From assembly GCA_903840505.1 (NCBI GenBank), contig CAIMGI010000082.1, forward strand, positions 1 to 51,565: a stretch of DNA of 51,565 bases. The letters run 5' to 3'. Below the pieces are notes generated by a model. It was not told where the DNA came from. It made no database searches and saw only the letters and a list, made by a program, of their open reading frames with translations. Shown here piece after piece: positions 3,760 through 16,541 of this stretch. Numbering within the stretch: position 1 is the stretch's first letter; the number at the start of each line of letters is the position of its first letter. Made by a program: the position numbers and the translations under genes. This stretch comes from an uncultured Bacteroidota bacterium. Lineage in GTDB: Bacteria > Bacteroidota > Bacteroidia > UBA4408.

Positions 3760-3862
3760 AACATTGTTTTATTCCTAAAATAGTGCTTTAAAATATATTT
3801 GTATATATCGCAAAATTTTCATTACTTGCACAATAATTTCAAAACACTAACAAATTTAAATT

Positions 3863-4765
3863 ATGTTTTTAAAACGACTAAAAATCAACCAGTTAATCTT
3901 GTTTATGTCAGTTGCTTCCCTCGCATTTTATGGTTGTGGTGGCAGTGGTGAGGGCGATGAAGATAAGCCGAAAGTTGTCATAGATAGCAACAAAACCGAC
4001 ATTATCAATATTGGAGGTGCTTTGTTCAGCATACCTTCGCCTATACAAACCTCCATCTTGTTGAAGAAGACTGGAGCAAACTACAACAAGGAGATATTGA
4101 ATTCTACTAAAAGTAGTGCAAACTACTCAACCAATTTCAAAAAAGCGGTTAATTTGGGCGTATATGGAGCCGATTTAGGTTATGTAACCATTTACGAACA
4201 AACACAGGATGCTATTGGTTATCTGCAGGCTGTTAAGAAAATGGGCGATGATTTGGGTGTTTCAGGAGCTTTTGATGCTACCTTGATGAAACGATTTGAA
4301 GCGAACTTAGGAAACAAGGATTCATTGTTAGGCTTGGTGTCATCGGCATACAGAGCAAGTGATGCTTATTTGAAGAACAACGAGCGTAACGATGTAAGCG
4401 GTTTAATTATAGCTGGTGGCTGGGTTGAAAGCTTATATTTCTCAACTAAAATTGCAGAAAAAAACAAAGGCAATAAAGATGTAATTCAACGAATTGCTGA
4501 ACAAAAAAATGCCTTGGATAATTTAATAAAGTTACTTACACCTTATTACCAAGACCCTGAGTATACGGAGTTTATTGATGCTTTGATAGATTTAGCATAC
4601 GATTTTGATGGTATTGAAATGAAATACACTTTTGTTGCACCTACTACAGATGCTAAAAACAAAATAACCACTATCAACAGTAAATCAGAAATTGTGATAA
4701 CAGACGATCAGTTAAAAGCAATTACTGAGAAGGTAGATAAAATTAGAACATCAATCATTGGATAA
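3863..4765 (+). CDS. Hypothetical lipoprotein, predicted mainly alpha-helical
   Basis: 300 aa; basic N-terminus, hydrophobic stretch, lipobox-like FYGC, then a Gly/acidic linker. Blocks NLGVYGADLGY and IIAGGWVESLY look conserved. Confidence 0.8.
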   Translation: MFLKRLKINQLILFMSVASLAFYGCGGSGEGDEDKPKVVIDSNKTDIINIGGALFSIPSPIQTSILLKKTGANYNKEILNSTKSSANYSTNFKKAVNLGVYGADLGYVTIYEQTQDAIGYLQAVKKMGDDLGVSGAFDATLMKRFEANLGNKDSLLGLVSSAYRASDAYLKNNERNDVSGLIIAGGWVESLYFSTKIAEKNKGNKDVIQRIAEQKNALDNLIKLLTPYYQDPEYTEFIDALIDLAYDFDGIEMKYTFVAPTTDAKNKITTINSKSEIVITDDQLKAITEKVDKIRTSIIG

Positions 4766-4774
4766 ACAAGAATT

Positions 4775-5194
4775 ATGAAAAAGATAATTATAACATTTAC
4801 TATTGCTCTTTTTGCAATCACATTTTCAAACAATGCTTTTGCGCAATGTGATTCTATTGCTACTATGTGTGTTAAGCATATGACTGCTAAATATATTTCA
4901 GATGGACAACAGTATCGTGCTTTGTTGTTGGATCAGGAAACAGCAGAGTTTAATGCTACTTTCTATGGAAATACAACCTATCGTTTGGCTGCTTGTAGCG
5001 GAAAAAGTGATGGTAACTTGGTGTTTACTATTTTCGATAAGGAAAAAAATGTATTGTTCACGAACAAGGATTATCAAAACGCACCTTATTGGGATTTTAA
5101 AGTAACCAACACCTTGGATTGTAGTATCGAGGCACAACTTAATTCAACCCTTTCATCGGGTTGTGCGGTGTTGCTGATAAGCTTCAAGCAGTAA
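4775..5194 (+). CDS. Small secreted hypothetical protein with five Cys
   Basis: 139 aa; Sec signal peptide ending AFA-Q; Cys in QCDSIATMC, AACSG, LDCS and SGCAV; 9 bp after the lipoprotein gene. Confidence 0.8.
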   Translation: MKKIIITFTIALFAITFSNNAFAQCDSIATMCVKHMTAKYISDGQQYRALLLDQETAEFNATFYGNTTYRLAACSGKSDGNLVFTIFDKEKNVLFTNKDYQNAPYWDFKVTNTLDCSIEAQLNSTLSSGCAVLLISFKQ

Positions 5195-5214
5195 AGGAAT
5201 TTATTAATATTTAG

Positions 5215-5249
5215 AAAAGACATTATATTTTAATAATGTCTTTTTTTTT
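5215..5249 (+). terminator. AT-rich hairpin with U-tract (weak terminator or attenuator)
   Basis: AAAAGACATTAT-6 nt loop-ATAATGTCTTTT followed by more T residues. Confidence 0.55.
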
Positions 5250-5265
5250 CTAAAAAGTAACACGT

Positions 5266-8200
5266 ATGAGTGAACGTATACTCAAGGCCTTAATGCAACT
5301 CTTTGCAATTGTTGCAAAGGTGGATGGAATTACAAATACCGGTAGAGACATCGTACAAGCATTCTTGAAACAACAACTCAATCAAGAGTTGGTGGATGAG
5401 TATTTGAAATTATTCGATCAATTTCTGGAGGGCTATCATAATTTATCGGATGTTACAAAAAAGAAAAAGAGAACTTCAGTAAATTCAGTTAAGGTATTAA
5501 AGATTTGTACTGAGATAAATCAAGAGTTAACGCAAAAACAAAAGGTTGTTGTTGTTATTCGATTGATAGAGTTCATTAATTCCAGTGGCGAAATATCCGA
5601 ACAAGAGTTAGAGTTTGTTGAAACTGTATCGTCTACTTTTAATATCAGTGACGAAGAGTTTAAGGGCTATATGAGTTTCATCAATGCTGCAGAATCCAGC
5701 ATTCCTGACTCAGCTAATATTTTAGTACTCAATAACAATAAAGAAAGCTATCCCAATATTAAGCACATTTACAATGAATCACTTTCAGGTGAAATCCGTG
5801 TGTTGAGTATCAATAGCGTAAATATGTATATTTTACGGTATTTTGGAAAAACAGAATTAAACTTAAATGGATTACCTCTTAGCAATGATAAAATAGCTAT
5901 ACTAAACCCCGGAGCATCTATTAGAAGTTCTAAAGTTAGCCCTATTTATTATAGCGATATAATTGGTCGTTTCTTGTCGGATACAACACAATCAAAAATT
6001 GTTTTTCAAGCGAAAGAAGTTGAGTTCCGTTTCAAAAGCGGAAAAATTGGAATGAATGATTACAATATGATTGAGGAGAGTGGGAAGATGTTGGGTATTA
6101 TGGGTGGTAGCGGTGCAGGAAAATCTACTTTATTAAATATCTTAAACGGTAATGATGCTCCTTCAAAAGGTGGAGTATACATTAATGGAATAAACATACA
6201 CAAGGAAAAATATAAAATAGAAGGTGTTATCGGTATGGTGTCGCAGGACGACTTATTGATAGAGGAACTAACCGTTTTCCAAAACCTTTTTTATAATGCA
6301 AAATTATGCTTTGACGGATATTCTGATGAGCAGCTTACTAAAATTGTACTCGACTTATTATCCGACCTCGGTCTATATGAAACACGTGATTTAAAAGTTG
6401 GAAGTCCGCTTGAAAAAACAATTAGCGGTGGTCAGCGTAAACGATTGAACATTGGTTTGGAGCTTATCAGAGAACCTTCGGTTTTGTTTGTCGATGAACC
6501 AACATCCGGACTTTCTTCTCGTGACTCTGAGAATATAATGGACTTACTTAAGGAGTTAGCCCTAAAAGGCAAATTGGTGTTTGTAGTTATTCACCAACCT
6601 TCCTCCGAGATATTTAAAATGTTCGACAAGTTAATCATCCTCGATTTGGGTGGTTATCCGATATACAATGGTAATCCTGTTGAGGCAATAGTTTATTTTA
6701 AATCATTGGTGAATCACGTAAATGCCAATGAGAGTGAATGTCCTGCTTGTGGTAATGTTAATCCCGAACAAATTTTTAACATTATTGAATCAAAGGTAAT
6801 TGATGAATACGGTGAACAAACTACCCACCGAAAAATATCACCTAAGGAGTGGTATGAAAATTACAAACAGAAAAATGAGGTTGCCTGTGAATTGGTAACG
6901 GATTATACGGAAGTTCCTAAGAGTACCTTTAATATTCCTAACAAATTCAAGCAATTTAAGGTTTTTATTACCCGAGATGTTAGGTCAAAGCTAACCAATA
7001 CGCAATACTTAATCATTAACTTGTTTGAGGCTCCTGTACTTGGTTTCATATTGGCTTATCTGGTAAAATACTACAATACGGATGTGAATAATAAAGTAGG
7101 TTATATTTTTAGGGAGAATGAAAATATGACAGCTTATATTTTTATGAGCGTTGTTGTGGCATTGTTCATAGGTCTTACGGTTAGTGCTGAGGAGATTATA
7201 CGCGACAGAAAAATATTGAAGCGTGAATCATTTTTAAATCTCAGTAAGGGAAGCTACTTATATTCTAAAATAAGTATTATGTTTTTATTGTCTGCCATAC
7301 AATCAGCATCTTTTGTATTGGTTGGTAATAGTATTTTAGAAATAAAAGGAATGTATCTCGACTATTGGTTCGTTTTGTTTACTACATCTTGTTTTGCGAA
7401 TATGTTAGGATTGAATATTTCAGCGAGTTTTAATTCGGCTGTTACCATTTATATCTTAATTCCTTTTTTAATTATTCCGCAATTGTTGTTGAGTGGTGTA
7501 ATTGTAAAATTCGAAAAATTAAATCCTGCAATTACATCTCAAAATTCGGTTCCTTTTGCCGGTGAGGTAATGACATCAAGATGGGCTTTTGAAGCATTGG
7601 CAGTGAATCAATTCAAGAAGAATGAATACGAAAGAAACTTTTATCGATTCGATAAGGAGTTAAGTATTTGTGATTTTAAAAAGAATTTTTGGATTGGTAA
7701 TATCAGAGCAAAAATTGACAGGTGTGAGAATAATTTGGTTGACCTTACTAAAAAGAAAGAATTAGAGTACGATTTAGCATTCTTAAAAAGTGAGATAGCA
7801 AAGGAAGGAAAGTTAACAGATATCTCTTTTGCCGAAATAGAGAGTTTAACACCGGGTTCCTTTAATACTACGGTAGGTGGAAAACTTAAAGCCTATGTTG
7901 AAAATATAAATACCTACTATAAAAAGAGGTATAACAATGCAAATTCACAAAAGGATAAAAAAATTGCGGAGTTTAATAAAACTCCACAGGAGCACGATAA
8001 ATTTTTGTTGATGCAGGATCAATATCAAAACGAGGCCTTAGGTGATTTGGTGCGAAATAAGAATGAAGTAAATAATATATTGGAAATTGATGGAGCATAT
8101 ATCCAAAGGGCCGATCCTGTTTTCTTAGACCCTAAGAGGGACAGTTTTATAAATGCACATTTTTATGCACCACGTAAAATGATGTTTGGGAAATATGTAG

Positions 8201-8343
8201 ATACGTTTTGGGTAAATATGATGGTAATTTGGTTTATGTCATTAACAATGGCAATAACACTTTATTTTGATTTGCTCAAAAAGTTGTTGGATTCGTTTGA
8301 AGGAATAACTGGCAGTATCAAGAAACTACTTAAAAGGAAATAA
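5266..8343 (+). CDS. Fused ABC transporter (NBD before TMD, ABCG/Rv1747-like topology) with TerB-like N-terminal domain
   Basis: Walker A GGSGAGKS, signature ISGGQRKR, Walker B LFVDEP, H-loop VIHQPS, a CPACG motif and C-terminal ABC-2 type TM helices. The N-terminal LFAIVAKVDG...ISEQELEFV segment is TerB/DjlA-like. Confidence 0.85.
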   Translation: MSERILKALMQLFAIVAKVDGITNTGRDIVQAFLKQQLNQELVDEYLKLFDQFLEGYHNLSDVTKKKKRTSVNSVKVLKICTEINQELTQKQKVVVVIRLIEFINSSGEISEQELEFVETVSSTFNISDEEFKGYMSFINAAESSIPDSANILVLNNNKESYPNIKHIYNESLSGEIRVLSINSVNMYILRYFGKTELNLNGLPLSNDKIAILNPGASIRSSKVSPIYYSDIIGRFLSDTTQSKIVFQAKEVEFRFKSGKIGMNDYNMIEESGKMLGIMGGSGAGKSTLLNILNGNDAPSKGGVYINGINIHKEKYKIEGVIGMVSQDDLLIEELTVFQNLFYNAKLCFDGYSDEQLTKIVLDLLSDLGLYETRDLKVGSPLEKTISGGQRKRLNIGLELIREPSVLFVDEPTSGLSSRDSENIMDLLKELALKGKLVFVVIHQPSSEIFKMFDKLIILDLGGYPIYNGNPVEAIVYFKSLVNHVNANESECPACGNVNPEQIFNIIESKVIDEYGEQTTHRKISPKEWYENYKQKNEVACELVTDYTEVPKSTFNIPNKFKQFKVFITRDVRSKLTNTQYLIINLFEAPVLGFILAYLVKYYNTDVNNKVGYIFRENENMTAYIFMSVVVALFIGLTVSAEEIIRDRKILKRESFLNLSKGSYLYSKISIMFLLSAIQSASFVLVGNSILEIKGMYLDYWFVLFTTSCFANMLGLNISASFNSAVTIYILIPFLIIPQLLLSGVIVKFEKLNPAITSQNSVPFAGEVMTSRWAFEALAVNQFKKNEYERNFYRFDKELSICDFKKNFWIGNIRAKIDRCENNLVDLTKKKELEYDLAFLKSEIAKEGKLTDISFAEIESLTPGSFNTTVGGKLKAYVENINTYYKKRYNNANSQKDKKIAEFNKTPQEHDKFLLMQDQYQNEALGDLVRNKNEVNNILEIDGAYIQRADPVFLDPKRDSFINAHFYAPRKMMFGKYVDTFWVNMMVIWFMSLTMAITLYFDLLKKLLDSFEGITGSIKKLLKRK

Positions 8344-8349
8344 GACAAT

Positions 8350-8871
8350 TTAAAATACAAGTCGTATTTCCATTTTCAATAATTCTAAAGCATACTCTGT
8401 AGGCAGTTTGTCAACTTTTGTAATAAGTTCAAAAATAATTTTACTCAAGTCGGTACCGCTTGCCTCATCACTTACCTTTGAAGATGCAATATTGATTGCT
8501 TTAATTGTTTCTTCTTTTGCAGTTTTAGTAGCATTCCAAGAATCATTCGATAAATATATTTGTTGTGATAGATTGTGTTCAAATTCAGATCGTATTGCCT
8601 TTAGTAGCTCAGCTTGTAACATACGCGCACTCATACCCGGTTTATAAACACGAACAATAAGATTGTTTAAGGCTATTCGTTCTAAAAACAATGCTATCCG
8701 TTCATAAGCTTGTAATTTTATGGGGGTTATCAATTTTTGATTTCCCATTCTTAGTTCCAACATTTTATTTCTGTGGTCTTCCGTTAAAAATGTTTTTATT
8801 ATGTAAAAACAAGCTATAAATACAACTAAAGAGGGTAAAATGTATTTTGCAATATCTAATAATTCTTCCAT
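8350..8871 (-). CDS. Conserved hypothetical membrane-anchored protein
   Basis: 173 aa; one N-terminal TM helix; LQAYERIALFLERI and IRSEFEHNLSQQIY blocks. Confidence 0.75.
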   Translation of the reverse strand: MEELLDIAKYILPSLVVFIACFYIIKTFLTEDHRNKMLELRMGNQKLITPIKLQAYERIALFLERIALNNLIVRVYKPGMSARMLQAELLKAIRSEFEHNLSQQIYLSNDSWNATKTAKEETIKAINIASSKVSDEASGTDLSKIIFELITKVDKLPTEYALELLKMEIRLVF

Positions 8872-10053: not shown

Positions 10054-10162
10054 TATAATTTGGCTTAAAACTTGTTAATTCTTTATAAAGATAATTCATT
10101 CCTTTTAATAAAGAAATATCGATATTTGGTGGTGATAGCGTACCTTATACAAGTTGTTGTTT

Positions 10163-12322
10163 ATGATGGTTACAAAATATAATATTTTGCGGTTTATAAA
10201 GCGTATTACTTTTTTATTGTTTGCATTTTGCTGTTTGTCAAATATTGATGTATTTGCACAGGCAACTTGGTATTTAGCTATTGATGGTAAGGTAGAAAAG
10301 GATGCCAAACGATTGGATGGCGCTGTTGTAACATTGTTGAAGAACGGTTCGGAAAAGGAGAAAGTAAATACATCGTCAACCGGAAAATTTATGTTCAAGT
10401 TGGAGCCGGATGCAGATTATACCATTAAAATTTCAAAACCCGGACACGTAAGTAAGTTGCTGAGTGTAAATACCAGAAATGTTCCACCTGAGGAAGCAGT
10501 TAAAGAAGGCTACAGTTTTCCTGTTTCAGTTTCGCTATTTGAAGAGGTTGCAAATTTGGATGTTTCAATTCTTAATCAACCCATAGGTAAAATATTTTAC
10601 AGCAAAGCCGAACAAAATTTTGATTTTGATGAAGCATATACTAAATCAATGCAAGCACAATTAGCAGAGTTGCAAAAGCAAATGGCTCAAAAGAAGAAAG
10701 AAGAGGCTGAGCGCTTGGCGGAAGAGGCGCGAAGAAAAGCAGCGGAGGAAGCTAAGAAAAGGGCAGAGGGGGAGGCTAGAAAAAAAGCCGAAGCTGATGC
10801 AGCCGCGAAAGCCGCAGCAGATGCTAAATTAAAAGCAGCGGCAGATGCCGCAGCGAAAGCCGCAGCTGATGCAAAGGCAAAAGCTGATGCCGCAGCTAAA
10901 GCAGCCGCAGATGCCAAAGCGAAAGCTGATGCCGATGCCAAAAATAAAGCCGCAGCCGATGCCGCCAAAAATAAGGCCGCAGCCGATGCCGCAGCCAAAG
11001 CAAAAGCCGAAGCCGAAGCAGCCGCCAAAGCAGCCGCAGATGCAAAAGCGAAAGCTGATGCCGATGCCAAAAATAAAGTCGCAGCCGATGCTGCCGCAAA
11101 AGCCGCAGCAGATGCGAAAGCAAAAGCGGATGCAGATGCAAAAGCGAAGGCTGATGCAGATGCTCGTAAAAAAGCTGAGGCCGATGCAGCCGCGAAAGCC
11201 GCAGCCGATGCAAAAGCCAAAGCTGATGCAGATGCGAAAAGTAAAGCTGCAGCCGAAGCAGCCGCCAAAGCAGCCGCAGATGCGAAAGCCAAAGCAGAAG
11301 CCGATGCCGCAGCAAAACTAGCAGCTGAACAGAAAGCAAAATCAGATGCCGCAGCGAAAGCCGCAGCCGATGCTAAAGCCAAAGCCGATGCCGAAGTCGC
11401 AGCAAAATTAGCAGCAGATGCGAAAGCAAAAGCTGATGCCGAAGCGAAATCAAAAGCAGAAGCCGATGCCGCTGCGAAACTAGCAGCCGAACAGAAAGCT
11501 AAATTAGCAGCCGATCAAAAGGCAGCAGCTGATGCGGCAGCAAAGTTAGCAGCTGAAGAAAAAGCAAAACTAGCGGCCGATGCAGCCGCCAAAGCCGCAG
11601 CCGATGCAAAATCAAAATCAGAAGCCGATGCCAAAGCCGCAGCAAAATTAGCCGCAGAGCAAAAGGTAGCCGCAGATGCCGCAGCAAAACTCTCTGCAGA
11701 GGCTAAAGCAAAAGCTGATGCGGAAGCAAAAGCAAAATTAGAAGCCGATGCAAAGGCTAAAGTAGAAGCAGACGCACGTAAAAAAGCAGAGTTGGAAGCC
11801 GCAGCAAAATTATCTGCAGAAGAAAAAGCTAAACGTGATGCCGAAGCAAAACTGAAGGCAGACGAAGATGCTAAAAATCGTTTATTGGCGGATCAAAAAT
11901 TAAAGGAAGAAAATGATGCTAAAAAGAAAGCGGATGCTGAAGCTGCAGCTAAAGCCGCAGCGGAAGCTAAATTAAGAGCAGAGGCTGCAGCAAAAGCCAA
12001 ATCGGACGCTGCACAGAAACAGCGCTTAGAGCAAGAAAGATTGGCTGCAGAAATGGCTGCTAAAGGAAATAAGAAAGCTCCGGAGGTTGTTTCCGAGAAA
12101 GAGAAGAAAGAAAAGGAATTATCGGAATTGGCAAAAAAATATCCTGAAGGGATTACCATTGAAAATGTGGATGGTCAAAATTGTAAAATAGAAAGAATAA
12201 TAGTGGTGAAGGATGCTACGGCCAATGAGTATAAAAAAATAACCTATAATTGGGGTGGCGTTTATTATAAAAAGAATGACGCAGACGTTTCAGAATACAC
12301 ATTTAAGAACGAAACAAAGTAA
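10163..12322 (+). CDS. Secreted protein: Ig-like (carboxypeptidase-regulatory-like) domain, long TolA-like Ala/Lys/Asp repeat, unrecognised C-terminal domain
   Basis: Signal peptide ending VFA-Q; LDGAVVTL...GKF.FKL...Y.IKISKPG pattern; about 450 aa of AKAAADAKAKAD repeats. ATG 10163 preferred to TTG 10154. Confidence 0.8.
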   Translation: MMVTKYNILRFIKRITFLLFAFCCLSNIDVFAQATWYLAIDGKVEKDAKRLDGAVVTLLKNGSEKEKVNTSSTGKFMFKLEPDADYTIKISKPGHVSKLLSVNTRNVPPEEAVKEGYSFPVSVSLFEEVANLDVSILNQPIGKIFYSKAEQNFDFDEAYTKSMQAQLAELQKQMAQKKKEEAERLAEEARRKAAEEAKKRAEGEARKKAEADAAAKAAADAKLKAAADAAAKAAADAKAKADAAAKAAADAKAKADADAKNKAAADAAKNKAAADAAAKAKAEAEAAAKAAADAKAKADADAKNKVAADAAAKAAADAKAKADADAKAKADADARKKAEADAAAKAAADAKAKADADAKSKAAAEAAAKAAADAKAKAEADAAAKLAAEQKAKSDAAAKAAADAKAKADAEVAAKLAADAKAKADAEAKSKAEADAAAKLAAEQKAKLAADQKAAADAAAKLAAEEKAKLAADAAAKAAADAKSKSEADAKAAAKLAAEQKVAADAAAKLSAEAKAKADAEAKAKLEADAKAKVEADARKKAELEAAAKLSAEEKAKRDAEAKLKADEDAKNRLLADQKLKEENDAKKKADAEAAAKAAAEAKLRAEAAAKAKSDAAQKQRLEQERLAAEMAAKGNKKAPEVVSEKEKKEKELSELAKKYPEGITIENVDGQNCKIERIIVVKDATANEYKKITYNWGGVYYKKNDADVSEYTFKNETK
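10790..12010 (+). repeat. Intragenic GC-rich degenerate tandem repeat encoding Ala/Lys/Asp/Glu helix
   Basis: Recurring GCAGCCGCAGATGC/AAAGCTGATGCC units; 10901-10962 and 11030-11091 differ at 2 of 62 nt. Confidence 0.9.
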
Positions 12323-13364: not shown

Positions 13365-16300
13365 TTATAGTCGAACTCCAATCACTAAAACATCGTCTAT
13401 TTGCTCCATCCCACCTCTCCAGTCATTGATAGTATTCTCGAGTATTTCCTCTTGTTGCTGCATATTCTTGTCTTGAATTCGTAACAATAATTCTTTAAAG
13501 CTTTTATACATAAATTTTTTATTGTTAACTCCACCGAATTGATCAGCGTATCCATCTGTAAATATGTAAAGTGTGTCTGAGTTTGAAAGTGTAAAATTAT
13601 GTGTAGTATAGTTCTTCCTATTTTCAAAAGCACCTATAGGTTGCTTATCGCCCTTTATTTCGTAAAGATTATACTTGTCGTTGCTAATATTGGGAGTATG
13701 AGTAACATTATTTAATATCAATTCCCCTTCTTCTTTTTTTCGCACAATATAAACCGGATTATTTGCACCCGAGAAGTTAACATTTTTATTCAAGATATCT
13801 ACAATCAACATAGAGATGTCCATACCATCCTTAACCGCTGTTTTATTGTTTTGCATTAATATTTTTTCAACGTTTCGGTTTAGTTTATCAAGCACTTCAC
13901 CTGAACCTAAATTTCCAAATTTATTAGCAGCGTGTTTTAATGCAGTGTGACCTACAATACTCATAAGTGCACCCGGAACACCGTGTCCGGTACAGTCAAC
14001 AGCAGTAATTAACAGTTTATTATCTAATTTATTAAAAAAGTAAAAATCACCGCTAACGATATCTTTGGGTTTGAAAAAAATAAATGAATCTTTTAAATAA
14101 TTATTTAATTGTGCAGGCGGAGGTAAAATAGCATCCTGTATTCGCTTTGCATAATTAATACTATCGGTAATGTTTTTGTTTTTATCTTCAATGATTTCAT
14201 TCTGAACCAAAATCTTTTTATTGGCTGCCTGTATTTTTACATACGAATAAATGAAACTGATAATAATAAGCGTAACGATTGAATAAAACCACCAAGTACG
14301 CCAAAAAGGTGGAAGGATTGTGAATTTAAAAGATACAGGTTGCGTATTCCAAATACCTGCACCATTATTTGCCTTCACCAAAAACTCATATGTTCCAGGA
14401 GGAATATTAGAGTATATAGCTTCCGTTTTTTGTGTAATGGCAATCCAATCTTTGTCAAATCCTTTTAAAATATATTGGTACTGTACTTTAGTTGGTGTGG
14501 TAAGACTCACACCTATAAAATTAAAGGTTAGGTAGTTTTTATTGTATTCTAATTCTAAATTGACAGGAATGTTGTTATCACCTACGGTAGTAGAATAATT
14601 ACTCCAATCAGTTGGTTGCGAAAATAATTTTATTTCTTTTAATCGGGTTATTGGTTCAAAAGTGTTTTCTTTATTGTATTGGTCACGACATATCATCAAT
14701 CCTTTAGAAGTTCCAACAAGAAGTTGTTTTTTGTTGTCTATCATTATTGCGTTCAGTATACACTCTTGTCCTACAAAACCTTCTTCAACTCCATAGTGTT
14801 TGATGTTTAAACTACCATCTTTGTTAAATTGTATTTTTTCAATTCCATTAGTTTGTCCAACCCAAACATTTTCTTTTTCATCAACAATAATGGATTGAAT
14901 GTTGTTTGAGGACAAACCATTTTTTTCATTGTAGTTAGTAAATTTTCCACCACTGTATTTATAAATTCCCGATGAAGGAGTCCCAATCCATAAATTACCC
15001 TTTTTATCTTCACAAATGGAAAAAACCTGCTTCCTTATAAATCCTTCACCTTCAGTAAAAAACTCCACCGAATTACCATCGTATTTAAAAAGACCACTTT
15101 CTGAAGCTATTAAGAAAACTCCAGTTTTATATTGATGAATTTTAAAAATACTTTTTTTTGGTAAATAATCGCCAGAAACTTCGGTAATTTCATTATTTTT
15201 TAATTTCGCAAGTCCGCCCCTTGTTCCGAGCCATATTTCATCATTTTCATCTATTAAAATATCCAAACAGAAATTAAGATTTTCGCTACCTTTTTTTTCA
15301 TTTGTAATTCTCTCGAATGATTTTCCATTGTATTTTACTATACCGTAAGTAGTTCCTATATATATTATTCCTTTACTATCTTCTGCAATGGTCTGAATAT
15401 CATCATTTAAGTTGCCGCCAAAATCCTTGGTGCCATATGAAGCATTTTTAAATCCATCCTGAATAGTAATACCTGTTTTTGTGCCTATATATAATATCCC
15501 ATTTTTACTTTGGTGAATTGCGCTAACATTGTCACTAATTAACCCTGTTTTTTTACTATCAGTGATAAATGTTTCACTTTGTAACTTCGATATCCCATTT
15601 TCTTTAGAGGCAAACCACATATTCCTTTCTCTATCTTGTAGTATCTGCCAAATAACATTATGTACCAATCCTGTTTGTTCATTATATAAATAGAATTTGC
15701 CGCTAGTATATTTAAGAAGACCTTGATCAGTACCTATCCATAGATTTCCTTTATCGTCCTTATTAAAACAATAAAACCCTATTTCCGTTTTTTTGCTTTT
15801 TAGAACCTGAAAAACATCAGGTTCAATTTCAGTAGATTTACCATTCACATAGCTCTCTAATGAAAGATCGGTAAAAAACCAAAAGTTATTTTTACTTACT
15901 TCACAAACGGAATATACAATATCTGATTTAACTCCAGAATTTCCTGTATTAATAGTGGTGAAAGTTGTACCATCATATTTTACAACCCCGTTGCCCAATG
16001 TACTGAACCAAATTGTATGATTGCTGTCTTCCATAATATTAAATACAGCCATTGAATCTAATAAACCATTTGAATTGAATTTTGTGAAGGTGTTATTGTT
16101 CATCATTGTTACACCTTGTCCGGTACCTAACCAAACTCTGTTTTTAGAGTCAATAAATATTTTAAATATTCGATCGTGGGTTAAGCCATTTTTAATTGTA
16201 TAATTTGTGTATTTTTTTCCATCATACACAGATAAGCCGTTGTTGGTTCCAATTAGTATGTGGTTGCTTTTATCTTTAGAAATGCTAAAAATAATTTTGT

Positions 16301-16541
16301 CTGGCAATCCATCCTTATCAGATATATATTCAAATGAATTCCCATCGTATTTAGTTATACCGCCATTGTTTGTTCCAAACCACATAACACCATCATCGTT
16401 TTGAAAAACAGATAATATTTGAGATTGTGATAAGCCACTTTCAATAGTAAAGTTCTCAAAACTGTATTGTTGTGCATTGCTCCAATCCGATAGAGATAAA
16501 AGTAAAATAAAGGAAATTATTATTCTATAAAAGAATCTCAT
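13365..16541 (-). CDS. Membrane sensor phosphatase: beta-propeller (Reg_prop) repeats, Y_Y_Y domain, TM helix, SpoIIE/PP2C domain
   Basis: Repeated D..G.LWIGT units; YQY.LKGFD..W...YSNIPPGTYEF; PPFWRTWWF; SINYAKRIQ, VSGDFY, DCTGHGVPGA, DGMD, TDGYADQFGG and QIDDVLV. Confidence 0.92.
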   Translation of the reverse strand: MRFFYRIIISFILLLSLSDWSNAQQYSFENFTIESGLSQSQILSVFQNDDGVMWFGTNNGGITKYDGNSFEYISDKDGLPDKIIFSISKDKSNHILIGTNNGLSVYDGKKYTNYTIKNGLTHDRIFKIFIDSKNRVWLGTGQGVTMMNNNTFTKFNSNGLLDSMAVFNIMEDSNHTIWFSTLGNGVVKYDGTTFTTINTGNSGVKSDIVYSVCEVSKNNFWFFTDLSLESYVNGKSTEIEPDVFQVLKSKKTEIGFYCFNKDDKGNLWIGTDQGLLKYTSGKFYLYNEQTGLVHNVIWQILQDRERNMWFASKENGISKLQSETFITDSKKTGLISDNVSAIHQSKNGILYIGTKTGITIQDGFKNASYGTKDFGGNLNDDIQTIAEDSKGIIYIGTTYGIVKYNGKSFERITNEKKGSENLNFCLDILIDENDEIWLGTRGGLAKLKNNEITEVSGDYLPKKSIFKIHQYKTGVFLIASESGLFKYDGNSVEFFTEGEGFIRKQVFSICEDKKGNLWIGTPSSGIYKYSGGKFTNYNEKNGLSSNNIQSIIVDEKENVWVGQTNGIEKIQFNKDGSLNIKHYGVEEGFVGQECILNAIMIDNKKQLLVGTSKGLMICRDQYNKENTFEPITRLKEIKLFSQPTDWSNYSTTVGDNNIPVNLELEYNKNYLTFNFIGVSLTTPTKVQYQYILKGFDKDWIAITQKTEAIYSNIPPGTYEFLVKANNGAGIWNTQPVSFKFTILPPFWRTWWFYSIVTLIIISFIYSYVKIQAANKKILVQNEIIEDKNKNITDSINYAKRIQDAILPPPAQLNNYLKDSFIFFKPKDIVSGDFYFFNKLDNKLLITAVDCTGHGVPGALMSIVGHTALKHAANKFGNLGSGEVLDKLNRNVEKILMQNNKTAVKDGMDISMLIVDILNKNVNFSGANNPVYIVRKKEEGELILNNVTHTPNISNDKYNLYEIKGDKQPIGAFENRKNYTTHNFTLSNSDTLYIFTDGYADQFGGVNNKKFMYKSFKELLLRIQDKNMQQQEEILENTINDWRGGMEQIDDVLVIGVRL

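Follow-up and report, generated by a model that had tools for sequence, protein, structure and literature searches.

A conserved lipoprotein, secreted protein and ABCG-like transporter module in Bacteroidota and its putative link to a SiaB/SiaC switch

What does an ATP-binding cassette (ABC) transporter resembling the eukaryotic ABCG pumps do in a bacterium where its gene directly follows those of a lipoprotein and a small secreted protein? The question is raised by a locus of an uncultured Bacteroidota bacterium (GenBank assembly GCA_903840505.1, contig CAIMGI010000082.1). Positions given here are those of the whole 51,565-nucleotide stretch that was analysed, termed the window. The module occupies 3863-8343 on the + strand, as do all of its features described below, and comprises a lipoprotein gene (3863..4765; 300 amino acids), a small-protein gene (4775..5194; 139 amino acids) and a transporter gene (5266..8343; 1025 amino acids), with intergenic gaps of 9 bp and 71 bp. 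A previous sequence-only reading of the window had described three co-oriented genes with these gaps, ending at a convergent gene, and the open reading frame (ORF) coordinates agree. The module is real and widely conserved in Bacteroidota. Tentatively, and with somewhat less than even confidence, sequence relationships lead us to read it as a type V (ABCG-like) exporter that would be gated by the SiaB/SiaC phosphorylation pair and would pass lipid-like cargo to its lipoprotein.

The three genes co-occur across genomes. The small protein is found in 32 of 40 related genomes. At the best locus in each of 28 other genomes, the lipoprotein gene lies upstream of the small gene in every case and the transporter lies within 1.5 kb in 23; three of these 23 (L018, L022 and L023) have a cupin gene between the small gene and the transporter. 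The five loci that are split from the transporter belong to genomes that hold it elsewhere. A scan of genome contigs with a single small protein returned five loci, of which three were true. In an even sample of 151 genomes of the phylum, scored with a limited number of candidates per genome so that remote copies could escape, transporter head and lipoprotein occur in the same five genomes; the small protein was found in four, and the fifth carrier has a divergent copy within the locus. A sample spread over families has the transporter in 64 of 100 genomes, and it also occurs in the named species Vicingus serpentipes. Around 49 full-length transporter genes (46 loci fetched by hand from high and low scorers, and three further; some end at contig edges), a lipoprotein gene within three ORFs is seen 36 times, a small gene 27 times and siaB/siaC 20 times, and 10 loci have none of these partners. 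One further genome has a transporter gene that is split in two close to its beginning (L010, G027:C139:6585-7297).

Trees made with FastTree divide the transporters into three clades of 28, 13 and 9 rows. The typical gene orders are lipoprotein-small protein-transporter facing siaC-siaB; siaB-siaC-transporter-lipoprotein-small protein; and siaC-lipoprotein-transporter. Linked lipoproteins sort by transporter clade (23 of 23, 7 of 8 and 6 of 7), a mirroring that can also arise from physical linkage alone, among related genomes that are not independent. Two more lipoprotein clades are essentially without a linked transporter, and lipoprotein-small protein pairs also exist without a neighbouring one. 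The genome under study holds four lipoproteins, two small proteins and one transporter. From the linkage counts, the clade sorting and the paralogue numbers, we take the transporter's core partner to be the lipoprotein, which in turn has the small protein as its own partner. The sequence-only reading had proposed an undescribed envelope system, a claim open to the objection that the genes might not co-occur elsewhere or might match a characterised system; linkage is seen across many families and no characterised match was found, which supports the proposal. Literature searches found no description of this gene set; subscription journals and supplements, which could mention the module, lay outside their scope.

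The three further lipoprotein paralogues of the genome (C45:9956-11332, C14:52514-53389 and C56:1-528) have no transporter beside them in the assembly. The copy on C45 is followed by the small-protein paralogue, and a cupin-like gene, judged by eye, lies about 3.6 kb from that pair. Elsewhere, orphan lipoprotein-small protein pairs adjoin a polA-like gene (L049, L050, L052, L054 and L056), and in L049, L050 and L054 an M43 peptidase gene with a type IX secretion system tail then follows convergently.

The transporter carries its nucleotide-binding domain (NBD) first and is a half-transporter. Pfam places TerB (residues 8-133), ABC_tran (265-414) and ABC2_membrane (563-783) in one ORF, as expected of the single-chain ABC transporter of 1025 amino acids described earlier. 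The TerB-like domain, predicted to be cytoplasmic (5287..5664; PF05099, E 2e-6), is matched in 21 of 21 aligned homologues. In the NBD (6001..6705) Walker A, Q-loop, signature, Walker B and H-switch are all intact, and since these catalytic motifs (K286, Q327, SGGQ, D410-E411 and H443) are invariant in 111 of 111 homologues, the protein most probably functions as an ATPase. Each chain has a single NBD and a single transmembrane domain (TMD), so that it presumably forms a homodimer. The membrane domain (6952..7614; PF01061, E 5e-18) has five predicted transmembrane helices, TM1 to TM5, and a re-entrant region by hydropathy; its PF01061 score of 65.8 bits against a cut-off of 26.9 marks it as the ABC2-type domain of a type V transporter. 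The last transmembrane helix, also from hydropathy, spans residues 981-999 (8206..8262). No hydrophobic window lies between residues 751 and 980, which leaves an insert of about 190 residues between TM5 and TM6 (7621..8181), predicted by type V topology to be periplasmic. The insert is present in 850 homologues. It is the least conserved region among the 111 homologues (0.57), with the membrane domain at 0.82 and the NBD at 0.84.

A pair of cysteines, C492 and C495, forms a CxxC motif directly before the sequence NPEQI (6739..6774). All 111 homologues keep the CxxC, as do 47 of 50 members of a divergent set. NPEQI aligns in register with NPFDF of ABCG5, the Asp being absent, and is the counterpart of the ABCG dimer motif NPxDF. 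In ABCG5/G8 the NPxDF-type motif is described as forming a symmetric NBD dimer interface (PMC8100176), and by this analogy the two CxxC motifs could meet near the dimer axis and form a metal site. The CxxC (residues 492-495), the insert, an FHA-like stretch (148-240) and an RNA hairpin at 5210-5254, the last two described below, had not been remarked on by the sequence-only reading.

The solved relatives that score best are Cdr1/Pdr5, ABCA3, ABCG1, ABCG5/G8 and ABCG2, and the transporter aligns to ABCG2 over residues 271-751. Like the eukaryotic ABCG proteins (ABCG1, ABCG2 and ABCG5/G8) and the pleiotropic drug resistance pumps Pdr5 and Cdr1, it is a single polypeptide with the NBD first and an ABC2-type membrane domain, and it has an NPxDF equivalent in register. 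It differs in having NPEQI in place of NPxDF, a head of TerB and FHA-like domains, the CxxC, the insert of about 190 residues, and a dedicated lipoprotein and secreted partner. As an NBD-first half-transporter it fits the ABCG subfamily model TIGR00955 in architecture; its score of 253.6 bits, against a cut-off of 736.35, and the lack of an exact NPxDF place it outside that subfamily.

A second comparison is with the mycobacterial transporter Rv1747, in which the NBD also precedes the membrane domain. Rv1747 is described as having the arrangement FHA-FHA-NBD-TMD and as being regulated by PknF (PMC3138270). Both are ABC transporters that begin with a regulatory head and are connected with Ser/Thr phosphorylation. 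The present module differs in having one TerB and one degenerate FHA-like domain (5707..5985), SiaB/SiaC in place of a PknF-type kinase, and periplasmic partners. The FHA-like domain is weakly supported: Pfam FHA matches 2 of 49 members (best E 0.0038), Mek1 (5yyx) is matched at E 0.094, and comparison with three FHA domains gives an hhalign probability of 3.7, the weak likeness being to the end of the FHA domain. The phosphothreonine-binding motifs of FHA domains are G-R and S-x-x-H, and neither is in the consensus of the stretch. The Pfam counts, the hhalign value and the missing motifs rule out a canonical phosphothreonine-binding FHA domain, and with it membership of the Rv1747 type. A profile of the transporter head found no match in the PDB.

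The two partners are less easily placed. Neither the lipoprotein nor the small protein has a Pfam or NCBIfam match at E≤0.1, no family emerged convincingly when 150 lipoproteins and 81 small proteins were scanned against Pfam, and the ESM Atlas returned unnamed clusters only. The lipoprotein has a lipobox cysteine (Cys25), an acidic tether and a mainly helical body. Its family comprises 3122 homologues (2647 clusters at 50% identity), mostly unnamed proteins, from named Bacteroidota where an organism is given. Cys25 is the sole cysteine and is conserved in 149 of 150 homologues; the predicted structure is almost all helical (predicted local distance difference test score, pLDDT, 91.5), in keeping with the helical lipoprotein of 300 amino acids first described. 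Foldseek gave no match at E≤0.001, and an imelysin/EfeO-like comparison found EfeO weakly (E 0.27, template-modelling score 0.25). Against 48,161 chains, VIA gave a best Z of 7.0 on a partial helical bundle, and sequence comparison with the PDB gave at most weak short matches (best E 0.02). The lipoprotein model is without a clear structural match; a new fold is not thereby proven.

The tether has a net charge of -0.73 at positions +2 to +6, against +0.37 in a background of 84 crudely predicted lipoproteins, and because of this acidity surface exposure is possible. The optimal surface-export signal is given as C-X-K-(D/E)2 (PMC5080379). A pattern modelled on the export signal is found in 15 of 149 lipoproteins and in 5 of 84 of the background, and CGGSGE of the window lipoprotein lies outside the optimum.

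The small protein has a predicted signal peptide, a short helix and a jelly-roll beta-sandwich. Its 758 homologues are again mostly unnamed proteins, from named Bacteroidota where given. The secreted protein of 139 amino acids was originally credited with five cysteines. All five are present, and four of them are conserved: among 81 orthologues C25, C32 and C74 are invariant and C130 is kept in at least 90%, while C116 is not conserved. As the conserved cysteines number four, the fifth is regarded as incidental from the alignment, and two disulfides may be expected. In the model (pLDDT 90) the jelly roll matches PliG, p24 GOLD and PPC/collagen-binding domains, tied at Z 8-9; with PliG (4dzg) Z is 9.2, with a root-mean-square deviation of 3.7 over 94 aligned residues and a template-modelling score of 0.54. 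It differs from them in its low identity (11-13%), in the tie between several families and in an extra N-terminal helix bearing two of the cysteines, and the fold gives no function. The helical model and the beta-sandwich exclude a solute-binding protein of two alpha/beta domains and bear out the observation that the first two genes do not encode proteins of the classical solute-binding kind.

The spacer between the small gene and the transporter holds an RNA hairpin with a U-rich 3' arm (5210..5254; z -2.93), which is terminator-like or stabilising. Among 41 distinct spacers at this place, the window's included, 32 reach z≤-2, and 27 of these also have a U-rich tail; the corresponding figures for controls, 120 of the 343 co-oriented spacers of this genome, are 34 and 21, with approximate shuffles and slightly different length ranges. 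TAnnTTTG is the -7 promoter consensus of Bacteroidota. It occurs in 3 of the 41 spacers, against 45 of the 120 controls. A candidate -7 box at 3794..3801, TATATTTG, matches the pattern, weakly so because the motif is this common in control spacers. A sigma-70 promoter and terminator scan did no better than chance and missed the A/U-rich hairpin, and a single RNA run (share 0.06) gave one identical contig of 315 nt inside the transporter gene, which is uninformative on co-transcription. The simplest reading of these sequence features suggests one transcript, on which partial termination or upstream stabilisation would leave lipoprotein and small protein in excess of the transporter. Such an excess would suit shuttles or receptors better than a fixed adaptor.

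In a rival arrangement the lipoprotein and small protein would be an independent, possibly surface-exposed unit beside a general efflux pump, with the neighbourhood, siaBC included, as inherited gene order. In 5 of 28 loci the pair stands apart from the transporter, and this agrees with such an arrangement, as do the orphan pair clades, the acidic tether and the chance that the hairpin is a true terminator. We consider it unlikely, however: the linkage persists through three gene orders, every transporter clade is paired with a lipoprotein clade of its own, a transporter is present elsewhere in the five split genomes, and the promoter motif is seldom found in the spacer that precedes the transporter gene. 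The predicted excess bears on a further arrangement, namely that the module imports or retrieves a hydrophobic compound, with the abundant lipoprotein and small protein acting like binding proteins for a type V transporter. An excess of partners, with several paralogous pairs to each transporter, recalls the logic of binding proteins, and type V is described as including importers (PMC8386196). Import is nevertheless improbable, as the fold of a binding protein is seen in neither partner, the bacterial type V transporters tabulated in that source are exporters (PMC8386196), and a Mla permease is already in the genome.

What might switch a type V transporter of this kind? Transporter and SiaC agree in 94 of the 100 genomes of the sample spread over families (both in 63, neither in 31, transporter only in 1, SiaC only in 5), in which related genomes do not count as independent; a weak control, the M43 peptidase, which is present in 91 of the 100, agrees with the transporter in 71. 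In clade 2 the siaC gene is immediately upstream of the transporter at 5 of 13 loci; in clade 1 the two stand tail-to-tail at 8 of 27, and in clade 3 they are within two ORFs of each other at 4 of 9. That they adjoin in every clade, yet in differing orders, speaks against inheritance alone, although 29 of the 49 loci and the window are without siaB/siaC. In the genome under study siaB-siaC are on another contig, C117. The C117 SiaC is sister to the SiaC beside the closest transporter (L104), in a tree of 21 rows with low support from which one SiaC-containing protein of 365 amino acids was left out, and it keeps the N-T-S motif (YFNTSS). A SiaC-containing protein of 365 amino acids is encoded directly before a transporter gene in L071, and in the genome under study a frame of 392 amino acids (C179:6027-7007) has two DUF6272 matches. 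SiaB, SiaC and SpoIIE phosphatase are all present here, with 23 SpoIIE matches. Outside the genome's own family, SpoIIE matches, counted by hand among at most 29 scored per genome, have a median of 16 in carriers of the transporter (n=41) against 0.5 in non-carriers (n=36).

In Pseudomonas, SiaC is described as a STAS-like protein that, in its unphosphorylated state, activates its neighbour (PMC8457831); MlaB, a STAS protein, is described as binding and regulating the NBD of an ABC transporter (PMC10094684). As SiaC is STAS-like and MlaB regulates an ABC NBD, SiaC is by analogy a plausible switchable accessory subunit of the transporter. The likeness to SiaABCD of Pseudomonas aeruginosa lies in SiaC (PF09345) with N-T-S, a SiaB-type DUF6272 protein and SpoIIE phosphatases, often beside the transporter. 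The difference lies in the output: GGDEF is unmatched in 5 of 5 carriers (the control was matched in 8 of 14), so that the Pseudomonas output, a GGDEF cyclase, is missing; the recurring neighbour is an ABC transporter instead, and the switch is on another contig here. With no match to a diguanylate cyclase SiaD as output in any of the five carriers, the module is not a SiaABCD system.

The agreement with SiaC and the SpoIIE medians also speak for a signalling device that is not a bulk exporter. The lipoprotein-small protein pairs would sense an envelope or external cue, and the ATP-driven transporter would relay it over the membrane through insert and head to SiaB/SiaC by mechanotransmission or flux sensing. 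Clade-2 operons with CheB, PAS/GAF/SpoIIE, siaB and siaC (L043), a lone small gene before a PAS/GAF/HAMP protein, hemerythrin and CheR (L059), several lipoprotein paralogues per transporter, and the fact that the top structural matches of the small protein are mostly protein-binding domains (PliG, GOLD, collagen-binding PPC) all point the same way. This alternative, the strongest competitor of the exporter reading, is possible though doubtful, given that membrane domain and NBD are equally conserved, that the closest solved relatives are substrate exporters, and that Pseudomonas SiaC acts, as described, on its neighbour as output (PMC8457831). In L043 a clade-2 transporter shares the operon named above. 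In L059 and L070 (G030:C50) the lone small gene heads a cluster that, beyond the genes already named, holds a CheB-like gene and further a SiaB-type protein of 380 amino acids, siaC, the transporter and the lipoprotein.

The Mla pathway offers a further comparison. It is described as consisting of the lipoprotein MlaA, the shuttle MlaC and the complex MlaFEDB with the STAS protein MlaB (PMC10094684). By analogy the module has a lipoprotein, a soluble periplasmic protein, an inner-membrane ABC transporter and a STAS-like regulator; it differs in its type V fold, as opposed to that of MlaE, and the genome has its own MlaE. None of the three module proteins has a Pfam match to MlaA, MlaC, MlaD or MlaE, so that the module is not Mla, and as the carriers have their own MlaE, the idea of a replacement for Mla finds no support. 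Tripartite efflux or type I secretion is likewise discounted. The flanks encode a GluP-type major facilitator superfamily (MFS) transporter and a DUF7935 protein, which agrees with the remark that neither TolC nor HlyD is adjacent, and by eye the fetched loci hold no recurrent neighbour cluster recognisable as membrane-fusion protein (MFP) or TolC, an unlinked TolC being beyond that scope. The module thus resembles an ABCG-type pump yet appears, on the sequence features tested, to lie outside the ABCG subfamily, the Rv1747 type, tripartite efflux, Mla and SiaABCD.

In the exporter reading, the transporter would likely dimerise in the inner membrane, lipid-like cargo would likely be handed via the periplasmic insert to the cognate lipoprotein, and the small secreted protein would likely help that lipoprotein. 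The SiaB/SiaC phosphorylation pair would probably switch the transporter, perhaps with SiaC docking on the head or NBD in the manner of MlaB on MlaF, and read-through past the hairpin may yield the excess of lipoprotein and small protein. We infer the contact between insert and lipoprotein, the hydrophobic, lipid-like cargo and the direction of export, the latter two from fold family only.

Several observations weigh against this reading. None of the results bears directly on cargo or direction. Ten of the 49 transporter loci have no partner within three ORFs, siaB/siaC are absent near 29 of the 49 and from the window, two lipoprotein clades are essentially without a linked transporter, and the mirrored trees may reflect linkage alone. 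The genome under study has four lipoproteins to one transporter, the FHA-like domain is devoid of phosphothreonine-binding motifs, and surface exposure, which the acidic tether makes possible, would keep the lipoprotein from the periplasmic insert. Carriers have their own MlaE in 5 of 5 cases, and a sterol or hopanoid cyclase is matched in none of the five. That the cell exports sterols of its own is thus unsupported, squalene/oxidosqualene cyclase matches being absent from all five.

A broader reading joins these parts. The ABCG-like machine would supply the output that a large Sia network of Bacteroidota, devoid of cyclases, otherwise lacks; in that network 10-30 sensor phosphatases would converge on SiaC as a phospho-switched, MlaB-like subunit of the pump. 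At the ABCG pivot the CxxC motifs of both subunits would clasp a metal between them, and the insert would serve interchangeable lipoprotein-small protein pairs of undescribed fold. Taken whole this is rather unlikely. If true, it would represent a new trans-envelope route or signalling relay that works without TolC, MFP or binding protein.

The rest of the window offers a few features near the module. The DUF7935 gene (8350-8871) is convergent and lies downstream of the transporter. A beta-propeller/Y_Y_Y sensor with a SpoIIE phosphatase domain (13365-16541), 5 kb from the module, is among the genome's 23 SpoIIE matches. A protein of 722 amino acids (10154-12322) combines a CarboxypepD-like domain with a long stretch of TolA-like Ala/Lys/Asp repeats. 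An open frame at the very beginning of the contig (2-625) is possibly an assembly chimera at the contig edge; we take its first ~40 residues to resemble a phage baseplate-hub protein and the remainder a biotin carboxylase C-terminus.

If the exporter reading is correct, Bacteroidota would possess an ABCG-like transporter that has periplasmic partners of its own, with a bearing on cargo delivery by ABCG-fold pumps across a two-membrane envelope. The SiaB/SiaC switch would gain an output where a diguanylate cyclase is unmatched, and the purpose of large SpoIIE sensor expansions would become testable. Two abundant protein families without a Pfam model, one of them without a clear structural match, gain a context.

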